A stretch of 34,276 bases of DNA from Candidatus Limnocylindrus sp. (GCA_046086645.1 JBJSXZ010000072.1:1-34276); one strand, 5' to 3'. Positions 7,967 through 33,279 are shown, counted from the first letter of the stretch. Numbers and translations are program-made. Notes: generated from the sequence alone by a model not told the origin.

Positions 7967-8828
7967 CGAAGCGCCTTCTAAGAACGACAGCAAGGCCGCT
8001 AATTGTGAGTACAACGAATAGAAGCACGATAATAGCTGCGGCGGCATCTTCGCGGAATGCCTCTTGTGGACGTCGCGACCAGTCGTAGATGATTACTGGT
8101 AGCGCCGTATAGGTGCTAGTGAGCATTTTTGCGGCATTCACTCCGGAGAATGAGCCGAGCACTGCTCCAGCTACGACGAGTGGTGCCGTCTCGCCAAGCG
8201 CGCGAGTCAGCGCCAAGATCATCCCTGTGAGGATGCTTGGAGCTGCGGCCGGAAGCACGAGGCGGCGTGTGACTTCCCACGGCGATGCGCCGATGCCGTA
8301 GCCTGCCTCTCGCAGCGAATGGGGGACCGCACGCAATGCCTCGGAGGCAGTGATCACCACGATTGGCAGGACGAGCACCGCGAGCGTTGCGCCGCCGGCA
8401 AGCGCACTTCGCCCCAACAGTGGGACAAACACCGCCAGGCCGAGCAGCCCATAGACAACCGATGGAACACCAGAGAGATTGCGGATATTCACCCGGATAA
8501 TTCGAGGAACAATACTTGTGCCCGCGTACTCTTCGAGGTAGATAGCCGTCGCGATGCCGAGAGGGAATGCAATCGCAGCCACCAGCGCTACCAGTATTGC
8601 GCTTCCAAGCAGCCCCTGAAAAATCCCAGCACTAGCGGCACTAGACGATAAGGATGAGGAAAGGAAGTTCCCACCCCTTTCGAAAAGGACAGGCGCTCCT
8701 CTTAGTATCACATCAATGAGGAGGGCGAACAATGCGCTGAGTGTGAAAAGCAAACTAGCAAGCATGAGAAGAGAGAAGGTCGCGCTTCGGAGGTCAATTT
8801 GCTGTGAGCGCCCCATCGAGCGTTTCAT
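7947..8828 (-). CDS. pstA: phosphate ABC transporter permease PstA
   Basis: Polytopic permease with an EAA-like loop ([16 protein letters not shown]). It lies between pstC and pstB, with 4-nt overlap coupling to pstC. Confidence 0.9.
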
Positions 8829-9772
8829 CGATTGCCACCCTGCGTTCGTCGGACAAACGATTCGCCGAGAAGGTTAAGGCCAAGCGTCATCAAGAACAGC
8901 AGCAAGCCGACGAAGAACAAACTCTGGAAGGCAGCATTCGCGCCAGTAACCTGATCTGAACCGGTCGCAAGGCTGACCATAGCTGACGTCATGGTCCCAC
9001 CTGGGTCAAGTGGATTGGTCGTACGAGTTTGCGGGGAACCCGCAGCCACTGCTACTACCATCGTTTCTCCAATCGCACGACTTGAAGCGAGGATGAGTGC
9101 GGCGACGATTCCCGACATCGCGCTGGGAATTACCACCCGTGCCGTCACCGTCAGGCGTCGTGCACCTAGCCCGAATGCTGCTTCACGCATCGTATTTGGC
9201 ACGCTACGCATGGCATCTTCAGAAACTGATGCAACAAGTGGGATCGAGAGGATGCCCACCCCGATACCTGCTGCAGCCAAGTTAAATGTGCCCGCCTCAT
9301 CAAATACCGACTGGATCAAGCTCGGCGTGATAGCGGTCAAGGCAAAGAATCCGATGACTACGCTTGGGATACCGGAGAGAATTTCAAGCGCAGGCTTCAA
9401 AAGGTCGCGCACCCGCGGCCGTGCGTATTCAGCTAGATAGATTGCAGTTGCCAACCCGATGGGTGTGGCGATTGACATTGCGATGCCGGTCACAATGAGT
9501 GATCCAAGTACGATGGTGGGCACGTCAAATATTCCTCGTCGCGGGAACCAGCCAATACCAAGGAGCTGAGTCATATCGATTTGGGTCACAAACCCGATTG
9601 CCTGGCTGACGAGCGACTGAATGATCAACACTCCGACTAGTACGGTCACGCACGCCGCGAGCAAGAATGCGAATTTGATGAGGAATTCTTTGCGACTTCG
9701 GGCAGCATCGCCATAAAGATCGCTTTGATGAATTCCCCTACCACGCTCGGCCACAACTTCCTCCGTGCCCAT
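8825..9772 (-). CDS. pstC: phosphate ABC transporter permease PstC
   Basis: Polytopic permease with an EAA-like loop (TMREAAFGLGARRLTV). It lies between pstS and pstA. Confidence 0.9.
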   Translation of the reverse strand: MGTEEVVAERGRGIHQSDLYGDAARSRKEFLIKFAFLLAACVTVLVGVLIIQSLVSQAIGFVTQIDMTQLLGIGWFPRRGIFDVPTIVLGSLIVTGIAMSIATPIGLATAIYLAEYARPRVRDLLKPALEILSGIPSVVIGFFALTAITPSLIQSVFDEAGTFNLAAAGIGVGILSIPLVASVSEDAMRSVPNTMREAAFGLGARRLTVTARVVIPSAMSGIVAALILASSRAIGETMVVAVAAGSPQTRTTNPLDPGGTMTSAMVSLATGSDQVTGANAAFQSLFFVGLLLFLMTLGLNLLGESFVRRTQGGNR

Positions 9773-10893: not shown

Positions 10894-10933
10894 GTTATCA
10901 GAGTGTTCGTGCGTTGTTAATAGAGCGTTAATT
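10894..10933. promoter_or_regulatory. candidate Pho box: four GTT-initiated direct-repeat units at 11-bp spacing
   Basis: GTTATCA (10894), GTTCGTG (10905), GTTAATA (10916) and GTTAATT (10927) each start exactly 11 bp apart. They lie upstream of pstS and overlap the stop of the response-regulator gene. Confidence 0.4.
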
Positions 10934-11620
10934 GCGAGGAGGGCGCAAGACGTATCCGACTCCTCGAATTGTTTCGAGGATTTCTGGATTGGACGGGTCG
11001 CTCTCGATGAGCTCACGAACAGCGTGAATATGCACATCAACCGTACGTGTTTCGCCTGGGTAGTCACTGCCCCAGACGTTCATCAACAGTTGCTCCCTCG
11101 AGAACGCCTGGCCAGGATGCTCAACAAGAAACGCCAGGAGGCGGAACACTTGTGGTTTGACTGGAATCGCGCCGCCGTCTTTCAAGATTTGATGACCGGC
11201 CAAGTCAACGCTGATTCGCCCGATTCGAAGCAGCGTGTTCGTCATATGAGGTTTCTCCAGCCTGCGCAACACAGCGCGGATCCGTGCAGTAAGTTCGCGG
11301 ATACTGAACGGCTTTGTTATGTAGTCGTCGGCTCCGACCTCGAGCCCGAGTATTTTGTCTGCTTCAGAACCTCGAGCCGTCAAAAGTATGATGGGTACAG
11401 AAGATTCTCCGCGAATCAAGCGGCATACCTCTACCCCTGAAATGCCCGGGAGCATTACGTCTAGGACGATCAAGTCTGGTGCATGCTTTCGAAACTCGGC
11501 CAGAGCTGTTGGGCCATCTACCGCCTCACCAAGCGCGTAGCCCTCGTGCTCAAGTGCCTGCAAAACCGACGCGCGAATTATTGGTTCGTCTTCTACAACC
11601 AAGATTCGCTTAGGTGTCAT
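10928..11620 (-). CDS. OmpR/PhoB-family response regulator (RegX3/PhoP-like)
   Basis: Receiver domain ILVVEDEP .. DLIVLDVMLPGISG .. LTAR, and a winged-helix C-terminus TVDVHIHAVRELIE .. IRGVGYVL. Confidence 0.9.
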   Translation of the reverse strand: MTPKRILVVEDEPIIRASVLQALEHEGYALGEAVDGPTALAEFRKHAPDLIVLDVMLPGISGVEVCRLIRGESSVPIILLTARGSEADKILGLEVGADDYITKPFSIRELTARIRAVLRRLEKPHMTNTLLRIGRISVDLAGHQILKDGGAIPVKPQVFRLLAFLVEHPGQAFSREQLLMNVWGSDYPGETRTVDVHIHAVRELIESDPSNPEILETIRGVGYVLRPPRN

Positions 11621-12831: not shown

Positions 12832-13332
12832 TCAACGCTCGTCGTTGTAAGTCCAAACATCGATTGCATCAAGGTCAACGGATGTGATGCCATGTGCCGC
12901 GAGCGCACCAGCAATCTGTGCGCGGTGCTCGGTTGCATGGTGCACCGCCTGGTTGATGAGGACCCAACGCGGTACCGAGAGTGACTCGCCGCTGAACGAG
13001 ATCCACTGAATGATCTCGGCACCTGGAAGCGGTGCGGCCGCCCTGAGCCGCATATCGGCGGCGGCAAGTGCCGCGCCGAGTGCCGCGATGTCGGCTCCGC
13101 TCGCCGGGAGTTCGCGCTTCTCTGCACGTGGTTCGCCATAGAGCCGCTGAGCATAGTTCTCTGCTGCGGTTGCGAGGTGGTGCGCGATCGCTCCAACGCT
13201 CCACTCAGATCCGGGCGCGGTATGCGCGAGCGCCTCGGGAGTTAACGCAGCCAACTTGCCGAAGAGATCAGCATTCGCCCACGCCATATGTCCGAGCATC
13301 TGGTCGATCGTCGTTTCAGGCATCGGATTCAT
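12832..13332 (-). CDS. DinB-family (DinB_2-like) metal-dependent protein
   Basis: MLGHMAWANADLF .. AIAHHLATAAENY .. AVHHATEHRAQIAG gives the three-His DinB pattern. Its stop codon abuts the kinase stop with no spacer. Confidence 0.75.
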   Translation of the reverse strand: MNPMPETTIDQMLGHMAWANADLFGKLAALTPEALAHTAPGSEWSVGAIAHHLATAAENYAQRLYGEPRAEKRELPASGADIAALGAALAAADMRLRAAAPLPGAEIIQWISFSGESLSVPRWVLINQAVHHATEHRAQIAGALAAHGITSVDLDAIDVWTYNDER

Positions 13333-13341
13333 TCGCAGAGA

Positions 13342-14532
13342 TTAGCGCTTTCGAAGTCGCGACGTTCTGTGCGAACGTGTTCGCGCCTGGAGCACGATGG
13401 CAGAAAGTGCAGCTGCCATGAAGGATGCTGCGAGTACTCCAACCTTTGCCGCGCCAAGTGACGCAGGATCTGAAAACGCGAGTTCACTAATGAGTAGTGC
13501 AACGGTGAAACCGATCCCTCCGAGGGTGCCGACGATCGCGATGTCGACCCACTGCACGCCGTTGGGGAGCCGAGCACCAGCGAGTGCCGCCATCAGGCGC
13601 GCGGTAATCAAGATGCCGAGCGGCTTTCCAACAAACAGCCCAACGACTACCCCGAGGAAGATTGGCGAGTTGATTTGGGCGGCGCCACTCAGTGTGCGGA
13701 GATCAACCGCGGCCGCAAAGAGGGCAAACGCCGGGACCGCGACCCCCGCGCTGAACGGGTGGAGGCGCTGAGAAACGCGCTCAGCAGGCGCACGCTCTTC
13801 GCGCGGATCTCTTCGGACCCGCGTCAAGAGGCCGAGCACGACGCCAGCGACCGTTGGATGGATACCAGCGTTATGCACCGCAAGCCAGGCACAGAGCGCC
13901 AGTGGGAGGTAGATAAGCACGTGCGTGAGGCGCAGGCGTTGCGCCACCGCATATGCCGCAAACGCCAATAGGGCAACAATGAGCGAGGCAATGTCAATGC
14001 TCCCAGAATAGACAAGTGCGATGACCAAGATGGCGCCAAGGTCATCAACGACGGCGAGGGTGAGGAGAAAGGCACGAACCCCAACTGGAAGCGCTCGGCC
14101 AAAAATGGCGAGGATTGCCAGGGCGAAGGCGATATCGGTTGCCATCGGAATACCCCAGCCGATCAGGTTCGCTGTTTCGTGGGCGTTCAGCAGCACGAAG
14201 AGCGCTGCTGGAAGCACCATGCCGCCAACTGCAGCAGCGATTGGTAGGGCTGCCTGCGCAGGGGTTGCGAGAGATCCGAGCACAAGCTCGTGCTTCAGCT
14301 CGCAGCCGATCATGAAGAAGAAGATCGCAAGCAGCCCGTCCGATGCCCACTCCTGAATCGTCAGATCGAGATGTAGCTGGGCGGGCCCAATGCGCGTCTC
14401 TGCAATCGAGCGGAAGAGCTCTGCCAGCGGGCCGCTCGCAAGCATGATGCCGGCAATCGCCGCCGCTATGAGCGCGCCTCCACCCACTGCCTCGCTGCGG
14501 AGGAACTCCGAAAGACGGTGTCGCTCGCTCAT
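13342..14532 (-). CDS. nhaA: Na+/H+ antiporter NhaA
   Basis: SEAVGGGALIAAA .. WASDGLLAIFFF .. GIPMATDIAFALA .. LAVVDDLGAI are typical NhaA blocks. Product is 396 aa. Confidence 0.9.
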   Translation of the reverse strand: MSERHRLSEFLRSEAVGGGALIAAAIAGIMLASGPLAELFRSIAETRIGPAQLHLDLTIQEWASDGLLAIFFFMIGCELKHELVLGSLATPAQAALPIAAAVGGMVLPAALFVLLNAHETANLIGWGIPMATDIAFALAILAIFGRALPVGVRAFLLTLAVVDDLGAILVIALVYSGSIDIASLIVALLAFAAYAVAQRLRLTHVLIYLPLALCAWLAVHNAGIHPTVAGVVLGLLTRVRRDPREERAPAERVSQRLHPFSAGVAVPAFALFAAAVDLRTLSGAAQINSPIFLGVVVGLFVGKPLGILITARLMAALAGARLPNGVQWVDIAIVGTLGGIGFTVALLISELAFSDPASLGAAKVGVLAASFMAAALSAIVLQARTRSHRTSRLRKR

Positions 14533-14579: not shown

Positions 14580-16127
14580 TCATTGCCAACTTTGGATAAG
14601 GAGCATCGCTGCGCCGGCTCCAAGCGGCAGGTTCAGCACGAGGAAGCGATGCCACGCCGATCGAGCATCGCGAACTGGATTGCGACTCACGATTATTTGA
14701 ACGACATTGAGAGCGCTGATAAAAGGAAGGATCGCAGCGATTCGAACAAGGAGATCAACACTTATCACGAGCACCAGAGCGGCGGCACCATAAAGTGCGA
14801 GCGATGCGAAGCCTGCCGCTCGAGCCCCAATCCACGTAGCGGTCGTTGCAATCCCAGATCGCCGGTCGGCAGAAATGTCCTGGATAGCACCGAGGATATG
14901 GTTCGCCATATTCCAGAGAAAAAATGCGAGGAGTGCGGGGAGCCAGCTCCCGTTGAGGGTTACTGCAAACGCAAGGCCAGAGGCGACAGGCAGGAGGAAG
15001 TGCGTTGCAGAGGTAAGTGAATCCACGATCGGGATCGACCGTGTTCTCAGCATCCAGGGGGCGCTGTAGATCGCGGCACTGCCAACGGCCATGAGCGGGA
15101 ACCAGCCGATCGGCGAGGGGAGCACGAGTAGCGCGGCAAGCGCTGGCGCCAGGCCAATCACTAGGAGTAGCCACCGCATTGGCCGCACGTCGCTTCGCAT
15201 GAGCCGTGCCCCTTCGACGCCACCCTTCCGTGGGTTGAGTGCGTCGGTCGCGGTGTCGTAGAGATCGTTAATACCGTAGAGGAAAAAGTTGTATCCAACG
15301 CCCCACCAGAGCGCGAGGGGAATAATCGCGGGACCAATGGCCTCAACGTAGCCTGTTGCGAGTGCGGCGCCGAGAAACGGCAGGATCGTGTTTGTCCACG
15401 CGAGTGGCCTTGATGAGAGAAACAATCGCCACACCTGGTCTTTTGATGCTGCGATGGCTGACAGAGCAAACAACGCAATGGTGCAGAACGAGTATGCATA
15501 GATAAGATCTTCGATCGGAACACTGAGCAGGTAGATATTGAGATTTGTTCTCTCTGGATAAGAGAAATAGCCCGCGGAGCAAAGAACGTTGTCAAACACC
15601 AGGGTGAAGAAGAGGAAGATCGCAATGGTGATCCAGCTCCCTCGAACACGAAAATGATTGAATGCCAAGCCGCTCGCTGCTGCTGCAAGGGCGAGCATAG
15701 ATCTTGTGTATGCAGGGAATGCTCCGGGAGCGGCGATGATGACAGCTGCAGCAGTGAGGCCGAAGAGCAGTGAGCGACGATTCAATCCAGCAGCGCGGTT
15801 TCGAGCGGGCGACTTCACGTACGTGCTGACGGCTGCGGAGAGAACGAGCGAAAACTGCGCGAGGAAGGCGAGGAGAAGCGGCTCTTCGAGTGGCAGGCCG
15901 GTGTCGTACGGCCCTACGCCGGGGAACATTGCACTGCTTAGTGCACGCGGCGTGTAGAACCACCCGCCAGCAATGCCAGCCATGTCTACGAGGAGGAAGA
16001 GCGTGACCATGATGGTGATGAAGGGGTAGGCGTGCGCCCTCGTAGTGGCGAGGCGCAGCCGGCGAGCCAGGGCGTGGGTCCCAACAGCCGACACTGCGAT
16101 TGTTACAAGATAGAGAAACCCGTGCAT
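14580..16127 (-). CDS. fusion protein: two lycopene-cyclase half-domains (CrtYc/Yd or CrtYe/Yf type) + CrtEb/LyeJ-type lycopene elongase (UbiA prenyltransferase)
   Basis: The N-terminal part (about 16127-15443) carries two hPhE(E/D) signatures, LPLEEP and VPIEDL, each in a 3-TM half. The C-terminal part (about 15442-14580) carries SSRPLAWTNT, YGINDLYDTATDALNPRKGGVEGA (NxxxDxxxD) and LGAIQDISADR (DxxxD). ATG 16127 is preferred over the 16226 start, as it follows a G9-AG tract acting as an SD. Confidence 0.75.
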   Translation of the reverse strand: MHGFLYLVTIAVSAVGTHALARRLRLATTRAHAYPFITIMVTLFLLVDMAGIAGGWFYTPRALSSAMFPGVGPYDTGLPLEEPLLLAFLAQFSLVLSAAVSTYVKSPARNRAAGLNRRSLLFGLTAAAVIIAAPGAFPAYTRSMLALAAAASGLAFNHFRVRGSWITIAIFLFFTLVFDNVLCSAGYFSYPERTNLNIYLLSVPIEDLIYAYSFCTIALFALSAIAASKDQVWRLFLSSRPLAWTNTILPFLGAALATGYVEAIGPAIIPLALWWGVGYNFFLYGINDLYDTATDALNPRKGGVEGARLMRSDVRPMRWLLLVIGLAPALAALLVLPSPIGWFPLMAVGSAAIYSAPWMLRTRSIPIVDSLTSATHFLLPVASGLAFAVTLNGSWLPALLAFFLWNMANHILGAIQDISADRRSGIATTATWIGARAAGFASLALYGAAALVLVISVDLLVRIAAILPFISALNVVQIIVSRNPVRDARSAWHRFLVLNLPLGAGAAMLLIQSWQ

Positions 16128-16249
16128 CTCCCCCCCCCGTGCGTACTGCGTGCGCGTCGCTTTCGATGGTACAAGCCGCAACGTCAATTTCGTATCACCA
16201 TATGGCAACATAGACGTGCAGCACATGCTGCCTAAATGAGGGGGAAACT

Positions 16250-16990
16250 ATGGAGCCAGTGCAGGCATATCAGTTGGTCTACAACTTGATGTCGCTCTCT
16301 ATTGCTGCAATGGGCAGCAGCTTCTTCTTCTTCGTCTCAGCGCGTAGCGCGCTGAAGCCGGAGAATCGCATGGCGGTAACGCTTTCAGCAACAGTCGTGC
16401 TGATCGCCCTCTACCACTATGTCCGCATCTTTAACTCGTGGGTAGACACCGCGGGTGGCACACTCGGCACCTTCAATGAAGCGTACCGCTACGTTGACTG
16501 GATCCTCACGGTCCCACTCCTCGTGGCAGAGTTGGTCCTGGTTCTGCGCCTCGACAGCAAGCTCGAGAGCATGTTGATCAAGCGCAACGTTGTCTACGCA
16601 TTCCTCATGATTGCGACAGGCTACATAGGCGAGATGGACGAGCAGACAACTGTCGTCCTCACGTCAGCCCGTACAATTTGGGGATTCATTAGTTCTGTCT
16701 TCTTCGTCTTGATTCTCCGCGACCTCTTCGGCGGTATCGCGGTTTCAATCAAGAAGCAGAGCAAGGAGATCCAGGGGATCTTCCGCATCCTACGTGTCGT
16801 GCTACTCGCGACATGGGGCGTTTATCCGATCGCGTACCTCTTGCCAACCATCACCACAAGCATCGGCCTCTCGGTGGCTGACGGTATGGTGTTGAAGCAG
16901 GTGGGCTACACGATCGCTGACATCTTGGCCAAGCCAGGCTATGGCCTTCTGATCTGGAAGATTGCTACCCTGAAGGACAAGGGCCGCTGA
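16250..16990 (+). CDS. microbial rhodopsin, DTE-motif light-driven proton pump (actinorhodopsin / proteorhodopsin-xanthorhodopsin-like)
   Basis: Product is 246 aa with 7 TM segments. AYRYVDWILTVPLLVAELV gives D83/T87/E94. It also has His56 (LYHY), Leu91 at the PR-105 position, and Schiff-base Lys228 in GYTIADILAKPGYGLLIW. SD GAGGGGG (16238-16244). Confidence 0.9.
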   Translation: MEPVQAYQLVYNLMSLSIAAMGSSFFFFVSARSALKPENRMAVTLSATVVLIALYHYVRIFNSWVDTAGGTLGTFNEAYRYVDWILTVPLLVAELVLVLRLDSKLESMLIKRNVVYAFLMIATGYIGEMDEQTTVVLTSARTIWGFISSVFFVLILRDLFGGIAVSIKKQSKEIQGIFRILRVVLLATWGVYPIAYLLPTITTSIGLSVADGMVLKQVGYTIADILAKPGYGLLIWKIATLKDKGR

Positions 16991-17015
16991 ACCTGACGTT
17001 CAGAACGGGAAGATC

Positions 17016-17048
17016 CATGAGGCCTGGGGGATTCCCCCAGGCCTCATG
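17016..17048 (+). terminator. intrinsic terminator after the rhodopsin gene
   Basis: CATGAGGCCTGGGGG (17016-17030) pairs with CCCCCAGGCCTCATG (17034-17048), a 15-bp perfect stem, followed by CTTT. Confidence 0.75.
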
Positions 17049-17056
17049 CTTTAGCG

Positions 17057-17072
17057 ATGCAACATGTTGCAT
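17057..17072. promoter_or_regulatory. 16-bp perfect palindrome ATGCAACATGTTGCAT, candidate operator upstream of the cys leader promoter
   Basis: The sequence is exactly self-complementary. It ends 24 nt upstream of the TACGCT -10 candidate (17097-17102), so it is adjacent to the expected -35 region. Confidence 0.35.
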
Positions 17073-17108
17073 TACCACTTCAGAACCATGAAGTAGTACG
17101 CTGCGTAC

Positions 17109-17198
17109 ATGACCGCAGCAGAACTAATCGCATGCGTCGCCGGCGAACCGAGCATCTGTCGATGCCCGTCGTTTGCCATGGAGTGCTGCGCGAGTTGA
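17109..17198 (+). CDS. putative Cys-rich leader peptide (29 codons, 5 Cys) upstream of cysK-cysE
   Basis: MTAAELIACVAGEPSICRCPSFAMECCAS*, with Cys at codons 9, 17, 19, 26 and 27. TACGCT (TANNNT) lies 6 nt upstream of the ATG, which suggests a leaderless transcript. It ends 59 nt before cysK and is too short for the ORF track. Confidence 0.45.
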   Translation: MTAAELIACVAGEPSICRCPSFAMECCAS

Positions 17199-17257
17199 AC
17201 TAGCGGGCACCAGGCAGACGGCGGGACCAACCCCGCCACGAGAGCCTGAGGTGCACC

Positions 17258-18250
17258 ATGAACGTTAAAGACTGGACACGTGTTTTCGATGACAACTCCT
17301 TGACGATTGGTCGTACGCCGCTAGTCAAGCTGCATCGCGTTACCGATAACGCAACCGCAACAGTTTTCGCAAAGATTGAGGGCCGGAACCCCGCCTACTC
17401 GGTGAAGTGTCGCCTTGGCACTGCAATGGTGCTCGATGCTGAGAAGCGCGGCGTCCTTAAACCCGGCAAAGAGATTGTGGAGCCAACGAGTGGCAACACG
17501 GGCATTGCCTTGGCGATGGTGGGGGCAGCCCGTGGCTACAAGGTGACGCTCACGATGCCTGAGACGATGAGCATTGAGCGACGAAAGCTGCTAGTTGCCT
17601 ATGGCGCAACGCTCGTCCTCACCGAGGGTGCAAAGGGCATGTCTGGTGCGATTGCGAAGGCAGAGGAGATTGCTGCCTCCGATCCCGATCGCTATGTACT
17701 GCTGCAACAGTTCAAGAACCCCGCTGGACCGGCAATTCATGAGTCGACGACGGGACCAGAGATCTGGGACGACACCGAGGGGAACGTCGACATTTTCGTT
17801 TCTGGCGTTGGCACTGGCGGTACGATTACCGGCGTTGCTCGCTACCTTAAGAACGGCCGCAAGAAGAACGTGCATGTTGTGGCAGTTGAGCCAGCAACGA
17901 GCCCTGTCATTGCGCAGCGCCTCGCGGGTCAGCCGAACCAGCCTGCACCGCACAAGATCCAGGGGATCGGCGCAGGCTTTGTGCCCGACATTCTTGACCT
18001 CTCACTCGTCGACCAGGTGGAGCCAGTGACGAATGAAGAGGCGATCGCCATGGCGCGTCGCATTGCCCGCGAAGAGGGAATTCTCGTTGGCATCTCGTGC
18101 GGTGCAGCTGCGCATGTGGCGATCAAGCTTGCACATCTTCCCGAGAATGCGGGCAAGACAATCGTGGTTATATTGCCAGACTCAGGTGAGCGATATCTCA
18201 GCACTGCGCTCTTTGAGGGAATGTTTGGGCCAGACGGTCTGCCGCTATGA
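17258..18250 (+). CDS. cysK: cysteine synthase A (O-acetylserine sulfhydrylase)
   Basis: [14 protein letters not shown] (PLP lysine), [11 protein letters not shown] and [10 protein letters not shown]. Confidence 0.92.
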
Positions 18251-19131
18251 GCAAGGAGATCGCAGCAGCACTGCTTGCCGCTGATGCGGCGGTGGCAAGC
18301 GCAGCGGTGGTGGCCGAAGACCGCCCCTCGCGGGGGGAGATCTCCCGCGTGATGGGCGAGCTGCGTGCTGCACTCTTCCCGCGCGAGTTAGGGCTTGCCG
18401 CGCGAGGGGAGGCGGCCGTTGCCTCCCATCTCCAGGAGGCACTCGACGGGCTCAATGAGCAGATCAGGCGTTGCGCTGTGCTCTTCGCGGCGGAGCGGCC
18501 AGGCAGGGGCGCCGCGCTTCCAGCGGACGCTGCAGCGATCGCAGGGGAGCTCGCAAGGGCACTTCCTGAAATCCGAAGGAAGCTCGAAGGCGATATCAGC
18601 GCCGCATTTGATGGGGATCCCGCTGCACAGAGTCGCTCAGAGATCCTGCACGGGTATCCGGGTGTTCGTGCGATCACCGACCACCGCATAGCGCACGTGC
18701 TCTATCAATTGGGCGTGCCACTACTCCCGCGCATTGCTGCGGAGTCGGCACACTCGGCCACGGGCATTGACATTCACCCCGGTGCAACGATTGGCGAGCG
18801 GTTCTTCGTTGACCACGGAACAGGGGTTGTTATCGGCGAAACGGCAATCATCGGCAGCGATGTACGTCTCTATCAAGGTGTAACGCTCGGGTCGAAGAGC
18901 TTCCCACACGCAGATGACGGCACCCTTGCAAAAGGAAGGCCACGCCACCCGATCATTGAAGACCGCGTCGTTATCTATTCTGGTGCGACGGTGCTCGGCA
19001 GGATCACCGTTGGTCACAACTCAACGATAGGCGGCAATGTGTGGCTGACGCGGAGCATTCCGCCGTATAGCAACATCTCGCAAGCACGAACGCGGGCCGA
19101 AGATCTTGTAGGCGAAGGACTCGGCATTTAA
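18247..19131 (+). CDS. cysE: serine O-acetyltransferase (long N-terminal form)
   Basis: [23 protein letters not shown] followed by hexapeptide repeats [35 protein letters not shown] overlap with cysK. Confidence 0.88.
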
Positions 19132-19147: not shown

Positions 19148-20134
19148 ATGGGTAGGCGACGCATCTCTTTAGAACGTTGCTGGTTCACCCCTACCCTTGT
19201 CGCTGCACTCACCCTTGCTGGTTGCACGGCCGCGGCAAGCCCAGCACCATCGCCACGTCCAACACCCTCGGCGGTCGCCTCTCCTACGAGTACGCCTTCC
19301 GACCCCTCAGGCGACCGTGGGATTTTGATCGCGGCGGGCGATGTTGCCTCGTGTTCAACGAGCGCAGATGAAGAGACCGGAGTACTGGTCGGACAACTCC
19401 GCGACGCAGCGGTGAGGGATCACCTCGAGGTAGCGGTTGCACTGCTTGGCGACGGTGCGTATCCCAACGGGGAGGCGTCCTCGTGGGCGAACTGCTATGA
19501 CCCAGCGTGGGGTGCCTTCAAGGAGATCACGCATCCTGCTGTGGGGAACCACGAATATTTATCTGACAATGCAGCGCCGTACTTTTCGTATTTTGGTTCA
19601 GCCGCAGGAAGTCCGCAGAAGAGCTGGTACTCGTACAGGATCGGAGCCTGGCGCATCATCGTGTTGAATTCCGAATGCGCAGTCGTTGGATGTGGCACAA
19701 ACTCCAACCAGTATCGGTGGCTGACAGCATCACTTGCGAGCGCGCGCGCAGCGGGCGAACCGATTGCAGCGATGTGGCATCGACCGCGTTTCAGCACCGG
19801 AGAGCATGGCGACGCGTTGGAGATGCAGGCGATCTGGTCTGCGCTGGCCCGGGCCGGCGTTGCCATTGTGCTGAATGGGCATGAGCATAACTACGAGCGT
19901 TGGGAGCCGCTCACCGCTGCTGGATCGCCAGGAGTTACGGGCATCACCGAGTTCATTGTCGGCACAGGAGGCGCAGACCTACGAGCGCAGCGGCGCAGCG
20001 ATATGCGCAGCGCGGTCTACCATATGGTGCACGGCGTGATCAGGCTCGAACTGGCGCGTGACTCGTATAGTTGGGAGATGATTGCCCTCGGTGGGACTGT
20101 TGTTGATCAAGGTAGGGCGGAGATCGCTCCTTAG
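19148..20134 (+). CDS. secreted/lipoprotein metallophosphoesterase (calcineurin-like)
   Basis: Lipobox LTLAGC, a Pro/Ser/Thr linker, then AAGDVASC, GDGAYPNG, VGNHEY and LNGHEHNYER. TACGGT lies 6 nt upstream of the ATG. Confidence 0.75.
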   Translation: MGRRRISLERCWFTPTLVAALTLAGCTAAASPAPSPRPTPSAVASPTSTPSDPSGDRGILIAAGDVASCSTSADEETGVLVGQLRDAAVRDHLEVAVALLGDGAYPNGEASSWANCYDPAWGAFKEITHPAVGNHEYLSDNAAPYFSYFGSAAGSPQKSWYSYRIGAWRIIVLNSECAVVGCGTNSNQYRWLTASLASARAAGEPIAAMWHRPRFSTGEHGDALEMQAIWSALARAGVAIVLNGHEHNYERWEPLTAAGSPGVTGITEFIVGTGGADLRAQRRSDMRSAVYHMVHGVIRLELARDSYSWEMIALGGTVVDQGRAEIAP

Positions 20135-30811: not shown

Positions 30812-32023
30812 GTGAGCGATAGTGCGAAGCGCAGGGAAATCAATCCAATTCCAGCACCTGGCGTACTCCTTCATATTGGACCTCCAAAAACCGGTACGAC
30901 TGCGCTGCAGCAGACGTGCCATACGCTCCGTGCCGCCATGCTCGAGCAAGGAGTTCGGTATGCGGGTGATGAACAACAACCTTCGACTGCTGTGTTCGCC
31001 GTGACTGGGCGAACACATCCGAGTACGGGGAAGGTTCCGTCGCTTCGCCATTGGACCCAGTTGCGAGACGAGGTTGTGAACGCGAAAGAGCAGCGGGTTC
31101 TGGTAAGCAGCGAGTTCTTTGCTGGCGCAACGAGCGAACAGGCCACTAGGATAATCCGTGAACTCGGTGGAGACCGCGTACGGGTTCTCATCACACTCCG
31201 ACCGCTGGCAAAGATTCTTGCTTCGCGGTGGCAGCAGAATGTGCAAGAAGGTTCAGTTCCCACCTATTCCGACTGGCTCACCGCCGTGTTGAACGATCGT
31301 GGAAGTGAGCTCAGCCAGAAATTCTGGTCGCGACAACAGCACGCAGAACTCGTGAGCCGCTGGGCGCGCGTGGCTGGCCCAGATCGCGTCACTGTCCTTG
31401 TCGTTGACGACGCGCATCGCAACGCTCTCTTGCGCGATGTTGAGCAGTTGCTCGCGCTTCGATCAGAGACACTTCAATTATCTTCTGTTGACTCGCTCAA
31501 CCGCTCACTGACCGCTCCAGAAGTTGAAGCAATCCGCATGTTCAATGTTGCATTCAAAGCAGCGAACCTTTCGAAAGCGCTCCGGTATAAGCTCATGTCT
31601 CGTGGCGGGGCGCAGCTCTTGAAGACCCGAACTCCAGAGCCGAGCGAGGCGCGAATTCTCACCCCTGCATGGGCCGATACTGCAGCACAAAACATTGCCC
31701 AAGAGATGATTACCGAGATTGCGGCGACCGGCGTACGGATCATCGGCGACCTCTCTCTGCTCGGGAGGGGGCTCGATCCATCCGCAATTGGTGAGATAGA
31801 TGACGCAGGGTTAAAGGTCGCGCCAGAGACTGCAGCATCACTTGCCATGGGCGTGCTGATCGCCACGGGTGCAGGGCGTGGATATGAGCGTGGTTCGAGG
31901 CTGCCAGCTTGGACAGAGCCGGAGGAGTTAAAGCGTGTTCCCACGCGCAACCTCGTGCGCGTAGTGCTGCAACGGCAGGTTCAAGGCCTGCTCCTTCGCG
32001 TGCGCAGCCTAATTCGACGCTAG
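30812..32023 (+). CDS. sulfotransferase-like protein, paralogue 2 (uncharacterised ~400-aa family)
   Basis: LHIGPPKTGTTALQ is a PAPS 5'-PSB loop and ITLRPLAKILASRWQQ is 3'-PB-like. GTG 30812 lies 7 nt after AGGAGG (30799-30804). The ATG 30767 start would overlap the rrf2 start. Confidence 0.65.
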   Translation: MSDSAKRREINPIPAPGVLLHIGPPKTGTTALQQTCHTLRAAMLEQGVRYAGDEQQPSTAVFAVTGRTHPSTGKVPSLRHWTQLRDEVVNAKEQRVLVSSEFFAGATSEQATRIIRELGGDRVRVLITLRPLAKILASRWQQNVQEGSVPTYSDWLTAVLNDRGSELSQKFWSRQQHAELVSRWARVAGPDRVTVLVVDDAHRNALLRDVEQLLALRSETLQLSSVDSLNRSLTAPEVEAIRMFNVAFKAANLSKALRYKLMSRGGAQLLKTRTPEPSEARILTPAWADTAAQNIAQEMITEIAATGVRIIGDLSLLGRGLDPSAIGEIDDAGLKVAPETAASLAMGVLIATGAGRGYERGSRLPAWTEPEELKRVPTRNLVRVVLQRQVQGLLLRVRSLIRR

Positions 32024-33279
32024 GAGCTGAGGAGCGCCTTCACCTGGTCGACAGCCGATTCGATGCTCACCAGAGAAGCGTCGATCACCAGGTCGGCGTC
32101 TGCAGGAATCTCATAGGGCGACGAGATGCCGGTGAATTCGGCGATCTCCCCGGCGCGCGCCTTTGCGTAAAGGCCTTTTCGGTCGCGAGCCTCGCAGATC
32201 TCAAGCGGCGTGCTTACGTAGATCAGGTAGAACGGGGCGACGCCAGCAGCGAGCGCGCGTGCCGCTTCGCGACTCTCAGCAAATGGCGCAATCGGTGCGG
32301 CGATTGCAATTCCTCCGCCCCGCGCGACCTCTACTGCAGCTTCGGCAATGCGCGTCACGTTGGTATTGCGCGCGGCACGGTCAAAGCCAAGACCGAGCGA
32401 GACCCGCCTGCGCATTGCGTCGCCGTCAAGAAGGTGGACATTGGCTGCGCCGTCATCGCGCAATGATTCAGCGAGCGAGCGAGCGATTGTTGACTTTCCC
32501 GAACCAGAGAGTCCAGTAAAGAAGACAACTGCCGGTTGACTCCACGTACCAGACGCTGCTGCTTCAACTTCGCGTGTTGATGCGAGAGTCAGCTCGCTTG
32601 CGCTGCGCACAGCTCCAACTGGCGCTCCCACAACGAACTGCGTCGACTTCTGCGCACCATACGCAGCAAGTGCGCGGAGAAGCCGCGCATCATCGTTGAG
32701 CGGTGCGCCTGGTTGCGCATGTGGCCACGGGAGGATGAGGAGCTCGACTCTTGCACTCGGGAGGTGTTGGCGAAGTTCGTCTGAAGCAGCGATTAGGCTG
32801 CGCGTTAATCCTGCGGCGCCAACCTCCCCCATGTGCGCAGCCTTCCGCGATACGAGCCCGACGATGATGATGCGCGATACCCTCGGCGCCGCACTCTCCG
32901 CCGCGCGGACGATCGCTTCGATTTCGGCGGTACTTGGCGGAAGCACAGCCACAAATGCGATATCGAACGGGGCCGTGTCGGTGGCTGCCGCATGGCGAAG
33001 TGCGGGATCCCACTGTGGGCCGAGCCCACGGGCGAGCGGCTTTAATGGAGTGAGCCCTACGCTACCCGTTGACGAAACGCTGATCTCAGCCAGCGGGGTG
33101 TTCTCCTCATCGCTGAAGGTGCACCGCCGTGCTCCCTGAGGGGCGAGATCGAGAACGTCTGCAGGCTCTGCCGCCCCGCTCAACACGAGTTCCAGGCGGT
33201 CGAGTCCTGCCTCGTCCAGGATGACCGCGCTCGTGCCTCCGTTGCCAGTGCTGCCCGCCAGCGTTTGATCAGATCGCAT
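32020..33279 (-). CDS. cysC: adenylylsulfate (APS) kinase with ~215-aa N-terminal ATP-sulfurylase-like, apparently degenerate, domain
   Basis: C-terminal half: VVFFTGLSGSGKSTIA .. LDGDAMRR .. FTGISSPYE. N-terminal half: LELVLSGAAEP, IIIVGLVSRK and VELLILPWP, but no HxxH. Confidence 0.85.
   Translation of the reverse strand: MRSDQTLAGSTGNGGTSAVILDEAGLDRLELVLSGAAEPADVLDLAPQGARRCTFSDEENTPLAEISVSSTGSVGLTPLKPLARGLGPQWDPALRHAAATDTAPFDIAFVAVLPPSTAEIEAIVRAAESAAPRVSRIIIVGLVSRKAAHMGEVGAAGLTRSLIAASDELRQHLPSARVELLILPWPHAQPGAPLNDDARLLRALAAYGAQKSTQFVVGAPVGAVRSASELTLASTREVEAAASGTWSQPAVVFFTGLSGSGKSTIARSLAESLRDDGAANVHLLDGDAMRRRVSLGLGFDRAARNTNVTRIAEAAVEVARGGGIAIAAPIAPFAESREAARALAAGVAPFYLIYVSTPLEICEARDRKGLYAKARAGEIAEFTGISSPYEIPADADLVIDASLVSIESAVDQVKALLSS

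Follow-up and report, generated by a model that had tools for sequence, protein, structure and literature searches.

Leader of the cysK-cysE operon

The stretch of DNA analyzed here, hereafter the window, comprises 34,276 nucleotides (nt) from the genome of Candidatus Limnocylindrus sp. (GCA_046086645.1, JBJSXZ010000072.1:1-34276) and includes the cysteine synthesis genes cysK and cysE. Directly upstream of these genes lies a 29-codon short open reading frame (sORF) with 5 Cys codons which, judging from sequence comparison, is a genuine, conserved and previously unannotated leader tied to cysK-cysE, probably with a cis-regulatory role. The features of the locus are the following (MFE, minimum free energy).

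17097-17102, + strand: -10-like hexamer TACGCT (TANNNT), 6 nt upstream of the sORF ATG; putative promoter of a leaderless sORF-cysK-cysE transcript
17109-17198, + strand: leader sORF, 29 codons, encoding MTAAELIACVAGEPSICRCPSFAMECCAS; supported by homologues upstream of cysK and by the substitution pattern
17142-17177, + strand: hairpin P1 (sORF nt 34-69), found in the MFE fold of every lineage, z = -2.0 to -2.4
17148-17171, + strand: 24-nt block CCGAGCATCTGTCGATGCCCGTCG, codons 14-21 (PSICRCPS), invariant in every homologue
17157-17165, + strand: C-R-C motif TGT-CGA-TGC (Cys17, Cys19), the sole Cys codons common to all lineages; proposed sensing codons
17184-17189, + strand: tandem Cys codons 26-27 (TGC TGC), window-specific
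17205-17257, + strand: structure P2, with a closing helix (17205-17215 with 17244-17257) and an inner hairpin (17220-17225 with 17232-17237), from the MFE fold
17258-18250, + strand: cysK (O-acetylserine sulfhydrylase A), the proposed regulated gene; TIGR01139, 460 bits against a cutoff of 351
18247-19131, + strand: serine O-acetyltransferase of the CysE/EpsC type; NF041874, 158 bits, above the cutoff
16250-16990, + strand: microbial rhodopsin gene, upstream of the sORF

The length of the sORF, its Cys content (codons 9, 17, 19, 26 and 27) and its position are as described in a first-pass annotation of this sequence, and an in-frame TAG at 17094-17096 blocks any extension in the 5' direction. 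The ATG of cysE overlaps the TGA of cysK (ATGA), and the operon probably ends at cysE because the next gene, at 19148, has its own TACGGT-N6-ATG.

Conservation of the leader across lineages

The window lineage belongs to the freshwater Limnocylindria (Chloroflexota), near Ca. Aquidulcis, a member of this class, and not to Actinobacteria. The nearest genome match to the window CysK is a Candidatus Aquidulcis metagenome-assembled genome (MAG), at 86% identity, followed at 77% or below by a mixture of Proteobacteria, Acidobacteria and others. A 98% identical CysK is encoded in an NCBI 'Chloroflexota bacterium' MAG which shares the order antiporter, carotenoid, rhodopsin, cysK, cysE, phosphoesterase and in which the position of the sORF carries no gene call. 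The comparison of cysK upstream regions, which the first-pass annotation had proposed as a check, recovers the sORF in four lineages, including that of the window; the other loci are denoted L001 and so on.

Window lineage: upstream gene, rhodopsin; sORF, MTAAELIACVAGEPSICRCPSFAMECCAS
Near relative (L169-L172): CysK 98% identical; upstream gene, rhodopsin; sORF, MTAAERIASVAGEPSICRCPSFAMECSAS
Aquidulcis type (L001, L081-L084, L181): CysK 84-89% identical; membrane protein upstream (L001, L081-L083); sORF, M[TS]AA[DE]LIAQAAGEPSICRCPSLSFGPSCAR
High-GC Chloroflexota, or L161 lineage (L161-L167, L173/174, L179, L182): CysK 83-85% identical; upstream gene, VanY; sORF, MTAAERIANVAGEPSICRCPSLPVGRLVAR

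In all these lineages, cysK and cysE/EpsC follow the sORF on the same strand, with 59-82 nt between the sORF and cysK, and because the upstream genes differ (rhodopsin, membrane protein, VanY), the sORF element travels with cysK-cysE rather than with the upstream gene. Three loci with 80% identical CysK (L175-L177) contain no such sORF, and further loci reached via P0002, P0005 and P0007 yielded no new leader variants.

The ATG, the reading frame, the position of the stop, the length of 29-30 codons and the TGA stop codon are all kept across the lineages. In the four-lineage alignment of codons 2-13, all 12 third positions vary, compared with 5 of the 24 first and second positions, and the sORF is therefore read as coding; by this substitution pattern, it is evidently translated. 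Beyond the Cys residues, the amino acids of codons 1-21 are under purifying selection, with the conserved N-terminal pattern MTAAE-IA--AGEPS, whereas the C-terminal third of the peptide varies freely (FAMECCAS, LSFGPSCAR, LPVGRLVAR). A search with the sORF peptide (three variants concatenated) against a collection of 5.8 billion proteins gave no match.

Conservation does not extend to all 5 Cys codons. Cys17 and Cys19, which form the C-R-C motif, are present in all lineages, and in the L161 lineage these are the only Cys codons of the sORF. Cys9 and the tandem Cys codons are gone already in the nearest relative (sORF ...IASVAGEPSICRCPSFAMECSAS), in which codons 26-27 are TGC TCT (C-S); there is a single Cys at these positions in the Aquidulcis type and none in the L161 lineage, so that the position reads CS, SC or LV in the relatives and CC in none of them. 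The expectation that the Cys codons of the leader would be conserved thus holds for two of them, and the polycysteine character named in the first-pass annotation is not what is conserved.

The two conserved Cys codons lie within the block CCG AGC ATC TGT CGA TGC CCG TCG, in which all 24 nt are identical across genomes that range from 59 to 72% GC. For comparison, in the cysK genes of the same sequences, only 26% of the third positions are invariant in columns with identical amino acids, and no more than 3 consecutive codons are invariant. Even the high-GC lineage, in which the GC fraction at third codon positions is 0.94, retains TGT and CGA in the block. These observations indicate that codons 14-21 are subject to a nucleotide-level constraint on top of coding.

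Two structured elements in the leader RNA

The invariant block coincides with the core of a hairpin, P1, which the first-pass annotation overlooked together with the block itself. The apical stem GCAUC/GAUGC (17152-17156 with 17161-17165) closes the loop UGUC (17157-17160) that holds the Cys17 codon, and the Cys19 codon UGC (17163-17165) is in the 3' strand; further pairs below the core lengthen the stem. Across the alignment, 95.9% of the cells at the 14 pairs of P1 are paired, compared with 33-51% when the partners are slid, and there are compensatory changes at two pairs, 39-64 (AU to GC) and 36-67 (CG to GC). With the exception of U51 in the loop, the third positions of the block all pair with first or second positions of other conserved codons; therefore, selection on the peptide combined with selection on the hairpin would explain the invariance, and we infer that such dual selection accounts for it.

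The palindrome GCATC-N4-GATGC was also considered as a DNA operator, but this reading was set aside since the G.U pairs, one of which is present in the window P1, and the compensatory changes fit RNA only. Among known RNA families, a search of Rfam 15 (T-box, SAM and other riboswitches) with positions 16900-17400 at E-values up to 10 gave only noise and no meaningful match, and a search with L001, L161 and L168 at E-values up to 0.1 gave no match.

The second structure, P2, occupies the segment between the sORF stop and the cysK AUG and pairs the region of the cysK Shine-Dalgarno (SD) sequence (GAGG, 17248-17251), with GA bulged. The helix over the SD, with its inner hairpin, had been predicted in the first-pass annotation and is found in the MFE fold in a slightly longer form. 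None of 200 dinucleotide shuffles matches the folding stability of the stop-to-AUG segment (z = -3.85), whereas the whole leader shows no such excess stability (z = -1.5). The topology of P2 is the same in all lineages although the sequences differ, and the SD region is paired in every MFE structure; in L161, the closing helix is near-perfect, with 11 base pairs (GCGCCUCGCGC with GC-GCGAGGCGC, z = -3.62).

Substitutions in the closing helix affect one strand only and are compatible with wobble pairing: in L169, A is replaced by G opposite U, and the Aquidulcis group has GCUG, GCCG or GUUG opposite CGGC. The covariation check proposed for this helix therefore returned a shared topology but one-sided changes only. 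The inner hairpin is not maintained: L169 has a C.A mismatch, and pairs are broken in the Aquidulcis group. Depending on the lineage, the stop codon is separated from the anti-SD arm by 0, 6 or about 14 nt (9 nt rather than 6 for the shorter arm of the first-pass annotation). Sequestration of the SD thus appears to be a shared architecture for which the covariation support is weak. A terminator scan of 16800-17400 found nothing, and P2 lacks a downstream U-run in all lineages.

A tract rich in C and poor in G is present in each lineage, 10-25 nt before the cysK SD (ACCAACCCCGCCAC, CCACCACCCACCA and ACCCCCAACCCA in the window, at 17225-17240, L001 and L161, respectively), and sits opposite a G-rich strand. 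This tract may simply correspond to the inner hairpin's 3' strand, or else be a Rho-related or anti-SD-related signal.

Promoter geometry and leaderless initiation

The hexamer TACGCT or TACGAT (TACGMT) lies exactly 6 nt before the sORF ATG in all four lineages, with different flanking bases. The sORF has no usable SD; the AGGAG found in the L161 lineage is separated from the ATG by 1 nt, a spacing too short for it to function. Of 30 other long ORFs in the window, 4 share the arrangement TANNNT-N6-start, compared with 0.12 expected, an approximately 30-fold excess. A scan for sigma-70 promoters around the sORF found no site; the scanner requires a -35 element, which is absent here at the standard spacing. 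Leaderless genes have been predicted for 4 of the 12 Chloroflexi genomes covered by a published survey (PMC3160421). Leaderless initiation at the sORF is plausible given the conserved geometry, and the recurrence of this geometry suggests that leaderless mRNAs are common in this genome of Limnocylindria. The first-pass annotation had recognized the hexamer and its spacing, both of which stand, as an actinobacterial arrangement; the lineage, however, is Chloroflexota.

The four other genes with the 6-nt spacing, at 12832-13332 (-), 13342-14532 (-), 19148-20134 (+) and 32020-33279 (-), mostly lack an SD, and two more, at 8825-9772 (-) and 10928-11620 (-), have TANNNT at a spacing of 7-8 nt. Between the rhodopsin terminator and the sORF promoter, there is a perfect 14-bp palindrome, TGCAACATGTTGCA (17058-17071). 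A related element, GTTGCA-nTAmC, preceded by a TTGC(A) repeat, is located 23-24 nt upstream of the -10 hexamer in the window, L169 and the Aquidulcis-type loci; this distance exceeds that of a sigma-70 -35 element, and the L161 lineage lacks the motif. This element, or the palindrome, could be a transcription factor binding site.

Proposed mechanism and alternative explanations

On balance, we favor the interpretation of the sORF as a leader that is translated from a sORF-cysK-cysE mRNA, itself probably leaderless, and that regulates cysteine synthesis in cis, and such a leader would most likely sense the cysteine supply, as the mycobacterial leaders do. In the proposed sequence of events, transcription would start at or next to the sORF AUG, as the conserved geometry suggests; the sORF, by its substitution pattern, is translated; the conserved UGU-CGA-UGC codons are presented at the apex of P1 within the ORF; and the cysK SD is paired in P2 in the computed folds of every lineage. 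When Cys-tRNA is scarce, ribosomes would pause at C-R-C and hold P1 open, by analogy with the mycobacterial leaderless sORFs (LL-sORFs) and the classical leader peptides. Following the same analogy, the opening of P1 would cause the leader to refold, or prevent the formation of P2, so that the SD is exposed and the expression of cysK increases together with that of the translationally coupled cysE. When cysteine is plentiful, the ribosome would clear the sORF, P1 and P2 would form, and initiation at cysK would be attenuated. Of these steps, the remodelling of the RNA and the direction of the regulation are inferred.

A specific form of this mechanism is a four-region alternative in which region 2 becomes free to capture the anti-SD arm when region 1 is occupied by a ribosome: in the 2:3 pairing, the ORF segment 3' of the stall site pairs with the anti-SD arm, and in the 3:4 pairing, the SD pairs with that arm. 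The duplex energies of 2:3 and 3:4 are -17.0 and -18.2 kcal/mol in the window, and -21.9 and -23.9 kcal/mol in L161, respectively. When the RNA was truncated at the edge of the ribosome footprint, only that of the window (truncated at nt 62) switched to the SD-freeing 2:3 pairing.

Several observations weigh against the cysteine-sensing leader, and against its four-region form in particular. Folding with a ribosome footprint at Cys17, Cys19 or the stop codon produced no consistent change in SD accessibility; the 2:3 pairing does not outperform that of shuffled sequences (p = 0.06-0.12), and the Aquidulcis group lacks it (p = 0.7). Since neither the folding nor the duplex tests show a consistent switch, we do not claim any specific alternative pairing. 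Furthermore, a ribosome paused about 40 nt upstream would be unable to melt the anti-SD arm directly. As for P2 itself, the z-scores in two other lineages are just -1.2 to -2.0, there are no double compensatory changes across the lineages, and pairing of the SD is easily obtained in GC-rich leaders. Finally, the conserved Cys codons are just two and are not adjacent, whereas the mycobacterial criterion is at least two consecutive ones, and the conservation of MTAAE-IA--AGEPS would be superfluous for a simple sensor of codon hunger.

In one rival explanation, the sORF encodes a functional micropeptide, for example, a thiol-binding or metal-binding C-x-C peptide that works with CysK/CysE as the product of the first cistron, with the Cys codons being no sensor. 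The purifying selection on codons 1-21 beyond Cys and the constant association of the sORF with cysK-cysE agree with such a function, but the freely varying C-terminal third, the lack of a homologous protein in the database search and the invariance of synonymous sites and P1, which point to a role at the RNA level, make it rather unlikely; besides, the known Cys-codon leaders conserve non-Cys residues as well. The RNA-level signal could, in turn, belong to P1 alone, which would be bound by a protein or ligand or would direct processing or stability of the RNA, independently of Cys-tRNA and with translation of the ORF being secondary. P1 is the best supported structure of the leader, its core is invariant even at U51, which is constrained by neither coding nor pairing, and the folding models with stalled ribosomes gave no switch. 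However, the third-position pattern upstream of P1 shows that the frame is read, the ATG and its spacing from the -10 hexamer are conserved, nothing in Rfam matches even at permissive thresholds, and the loop and 3' strand hold exactly the two Cys codons, upstream of genes for cysteine synthesis, so that we consider this explanation unlikely. In a further variant, the invariant nascent peptide AGEPSICRCPS and the likewise invariant hairpin that encodes it would together form a dedicated arrest or sensor module rather than a plain sensor of Cys-tRNA hunger, which could, for example, sense a sulfur metabolite or the thiol redox state via the two cysteines, or act through a factor-bound hairpin. 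This is quite an unlikely option but, if true, it would be a new type of translational sensor for cysteine synthesis in abundant freshwater Chloroflexota.

The element might also lack any sensor, if leaderless translation simply stabilizes the mRNA, or if ribosomes that terminate at the sORF stop open P2 by translational coupling, resulting in constitutive control. The conserved position of the stop fits this explanation, as does the L161 lineage, where the anti-SD arm begins immediately after the stop and would be melted by a terminating ribosome. Nevertheless, the distance from stop to arm ranges from 0 to 14 nt, and in the Aquidulcis-type leaders, a terminating ribosome would not reach the arm; the invariant apex with its two Cys codons is left unexplained; and with coupling, cysteine starvation would lower the expression of cysK, which is physiologically backwards. 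Constitutive control without sensing is hence rather unlikely as well. The last alternative, a functionless chance ORF in a GC-rich intergenic region, derives its appeal from the abundance of Cys-rich reading frames. Of the 272 mechanically defined ORFs of 20-40 amino acids in the window, 5 or more Cys are found in 6, CC in 11, and the two together in 3. In a set of 165 cysK loci belonging to other phyla, the upstream region contains a Cys-rich sORF on the sense strand at 35 loci and on the antisense strand at 31, so that these sORFs show no preference for the sense strand. The Cys count by itself exceeds chance only weakly, and the sORF is judged to be real because of its conservation, not because of this count: given the coding signature and the persistence of the start, frame, length and 21 codons across 59-72% GC and next to different upstream genes, the chance explanation is effectively refuted.

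Other observations at the locus and its relatives

In the window, a strong 33-nt hairpin (17016-17048) follows the rhodopsin gene and is itself followed by CUUU only. The rhodopsin gene (+) is divergent from a gene for a lycopene-cyclase/UbiA fusion (-), the two spanning 14580-16990, and this synteny is kept in L169-L172. Outside Limnocylindria, the closest CysK sequences (73-79% identical) come from Proteobacteria, Acidobacteria and Myxococcota rather than from other Chloroflexota, which hints at a horizontal acquisition of this type of cysK.

A non-homologous sORF with a CCC...CC pattern, MLCPA[YN]SSVARPGAPLAPAACCCRL[AT]CCR, precedes cysK-cysE in L168 (at approximately 2803-2892) and L178, which represent a separate high-GC lineage (GC 73%; CysK 81% identical). 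It has TACGCT 12 nt upstream of its ATG and is kept between two metagenomes, underlining how often such a solution evolves. In contrast, the apparent polycysteine leader 'MWCCCC...' of L123 (approximately 909-983) was rejected as an off-frame reading inside a rhodanese-like gene, an artefact that calls for caution in searches based on Cys runs.

Comparison with known cysteine-responsive leaders

To our knowledge, ribosome-mediated sensing of cysteine by a leader ORF has been demonstrated experimentally only in mycobacteria. The element described here parallels these leaders in several respects: it is an unannotated short first cistron of a cysteine-metabolism operon, with Cys codons, promoter geometry of the leaderless type, a downstream SD in an RNA duplex (in our case, a predicted one) and no intrinsic terminator. 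Polycysteine LL-sORFs respond to cysteine via sequestration of the SD, as in Ms5788A of M. smegmatis (Canestrari et al. 2020, 10.1101/834739; Mol Microbiol 114:93), and Rv2334A of M. tuberculosis, which was identified from transcriptome profiles, precedes the same genes, cysK1-cysE (Canestrari et al. 2020, 10.1101/834739). The claim of the first-pass annotation that the mycobacterial logic is reused here holds insofar as a Cys-responsive LL-sORF is the closest precedent; with Rv2334A known, cysK-cysE is not a new target.

The differences are, however, substantial. The present leader is found in Chloroflexota and shares no sequence homology with the mycobacterial ones; its two Cys codons are split by Arg in the middle of the ORF, whereas the mycobacterial leaders have a C-terminal Cys run, and the conserved C-R-C motif contains no two consecutive Cys codons, the search criterion for the 'Cys ribulon'. 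In the mycobacterial model, ribosomes stalled on the polycysteine tract block a duplex of the Cys codons with the SD (10.1101/834739), so that in Ms5788A the Cys codons are the SD-pairing strand. Here, the Cys codons pair within P1 and the stop codon is followed by the anti-SD arm at a distance of 0-14 nt, and therefore, the mycobacterial model does not apply literally.

Similar comparisons can be made with other leaders. ORFs with Cys codons upstream of cys operons have been predicted in Actinobacteria (Seliverstov et al. 2005, PMC1262725). These are likewise short and have no obvious terminator, but their Cys runs are near the stop and a Rho-dependent mechanism has been suggested, in contrast to the C-R-C in a mid-ORF hairpin. 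In the uORFC-8-2 of Rhodobacterales cysS, two Cys codons in the first stem have been interpreted as ribosome-mediated attenuation (Brewer et al. 2021, PMC8632094). Both leaders have two conserved Cys codons (at about positions 14-15 in uORFC-8-2) inside the first stem of a two-stem leader, with Cys17 in the P1 loop and Cys19 in its 3' strand in our case. Unlike the Limnocylindria leader, the alphaproteobacterial one has tandem Cys codons, a second stem that is an intrinsic terminator with a U-run, and cysS as the target, whereas here the second structure sequesters the SD and there is no terminator. More generally, the presence of regulatory codons in the first hairpin resembles trp-type leaders, and the proposed output, exposure of an SD instead of termination, resembles ermCL/erm; the differences from both are that no conserved 2:3 alternative pairing can be demonstrated here and that the mRNA is predicted to be leaderless. 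The combination of an intrinsic terminator with an antiterminator that characterizes trpL and uORFC-8-2 is not found.

The element thus resembles the known Cys leaders but is a member of none of these groups: it has no tandem run, no SD pairing by Cys codons, no terminator, no Rfam match and no homology. It is a non-homologous Cys-codon leader in a new phylum, for which both the concept and the target operon were already known. If the proposed function holds, leader-ORF cysteine sensing would extend to the uncultured and abundant freshwater Limnocylindria, where leaderless transcripts are suggested to be common, and the same logic would have evolved convergently on the same operon, cysK-cysE. 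The invariant 24-nt block also provides a signature for tracing additional members of a possible regulon. What distinguishes this leader from the known systems is the hairpin that presents C-R-C, together with its invariant core; two non-adjacent Cys codons presented in this way may suffice for sensing, and searches for Cys runs would miss such leaders.

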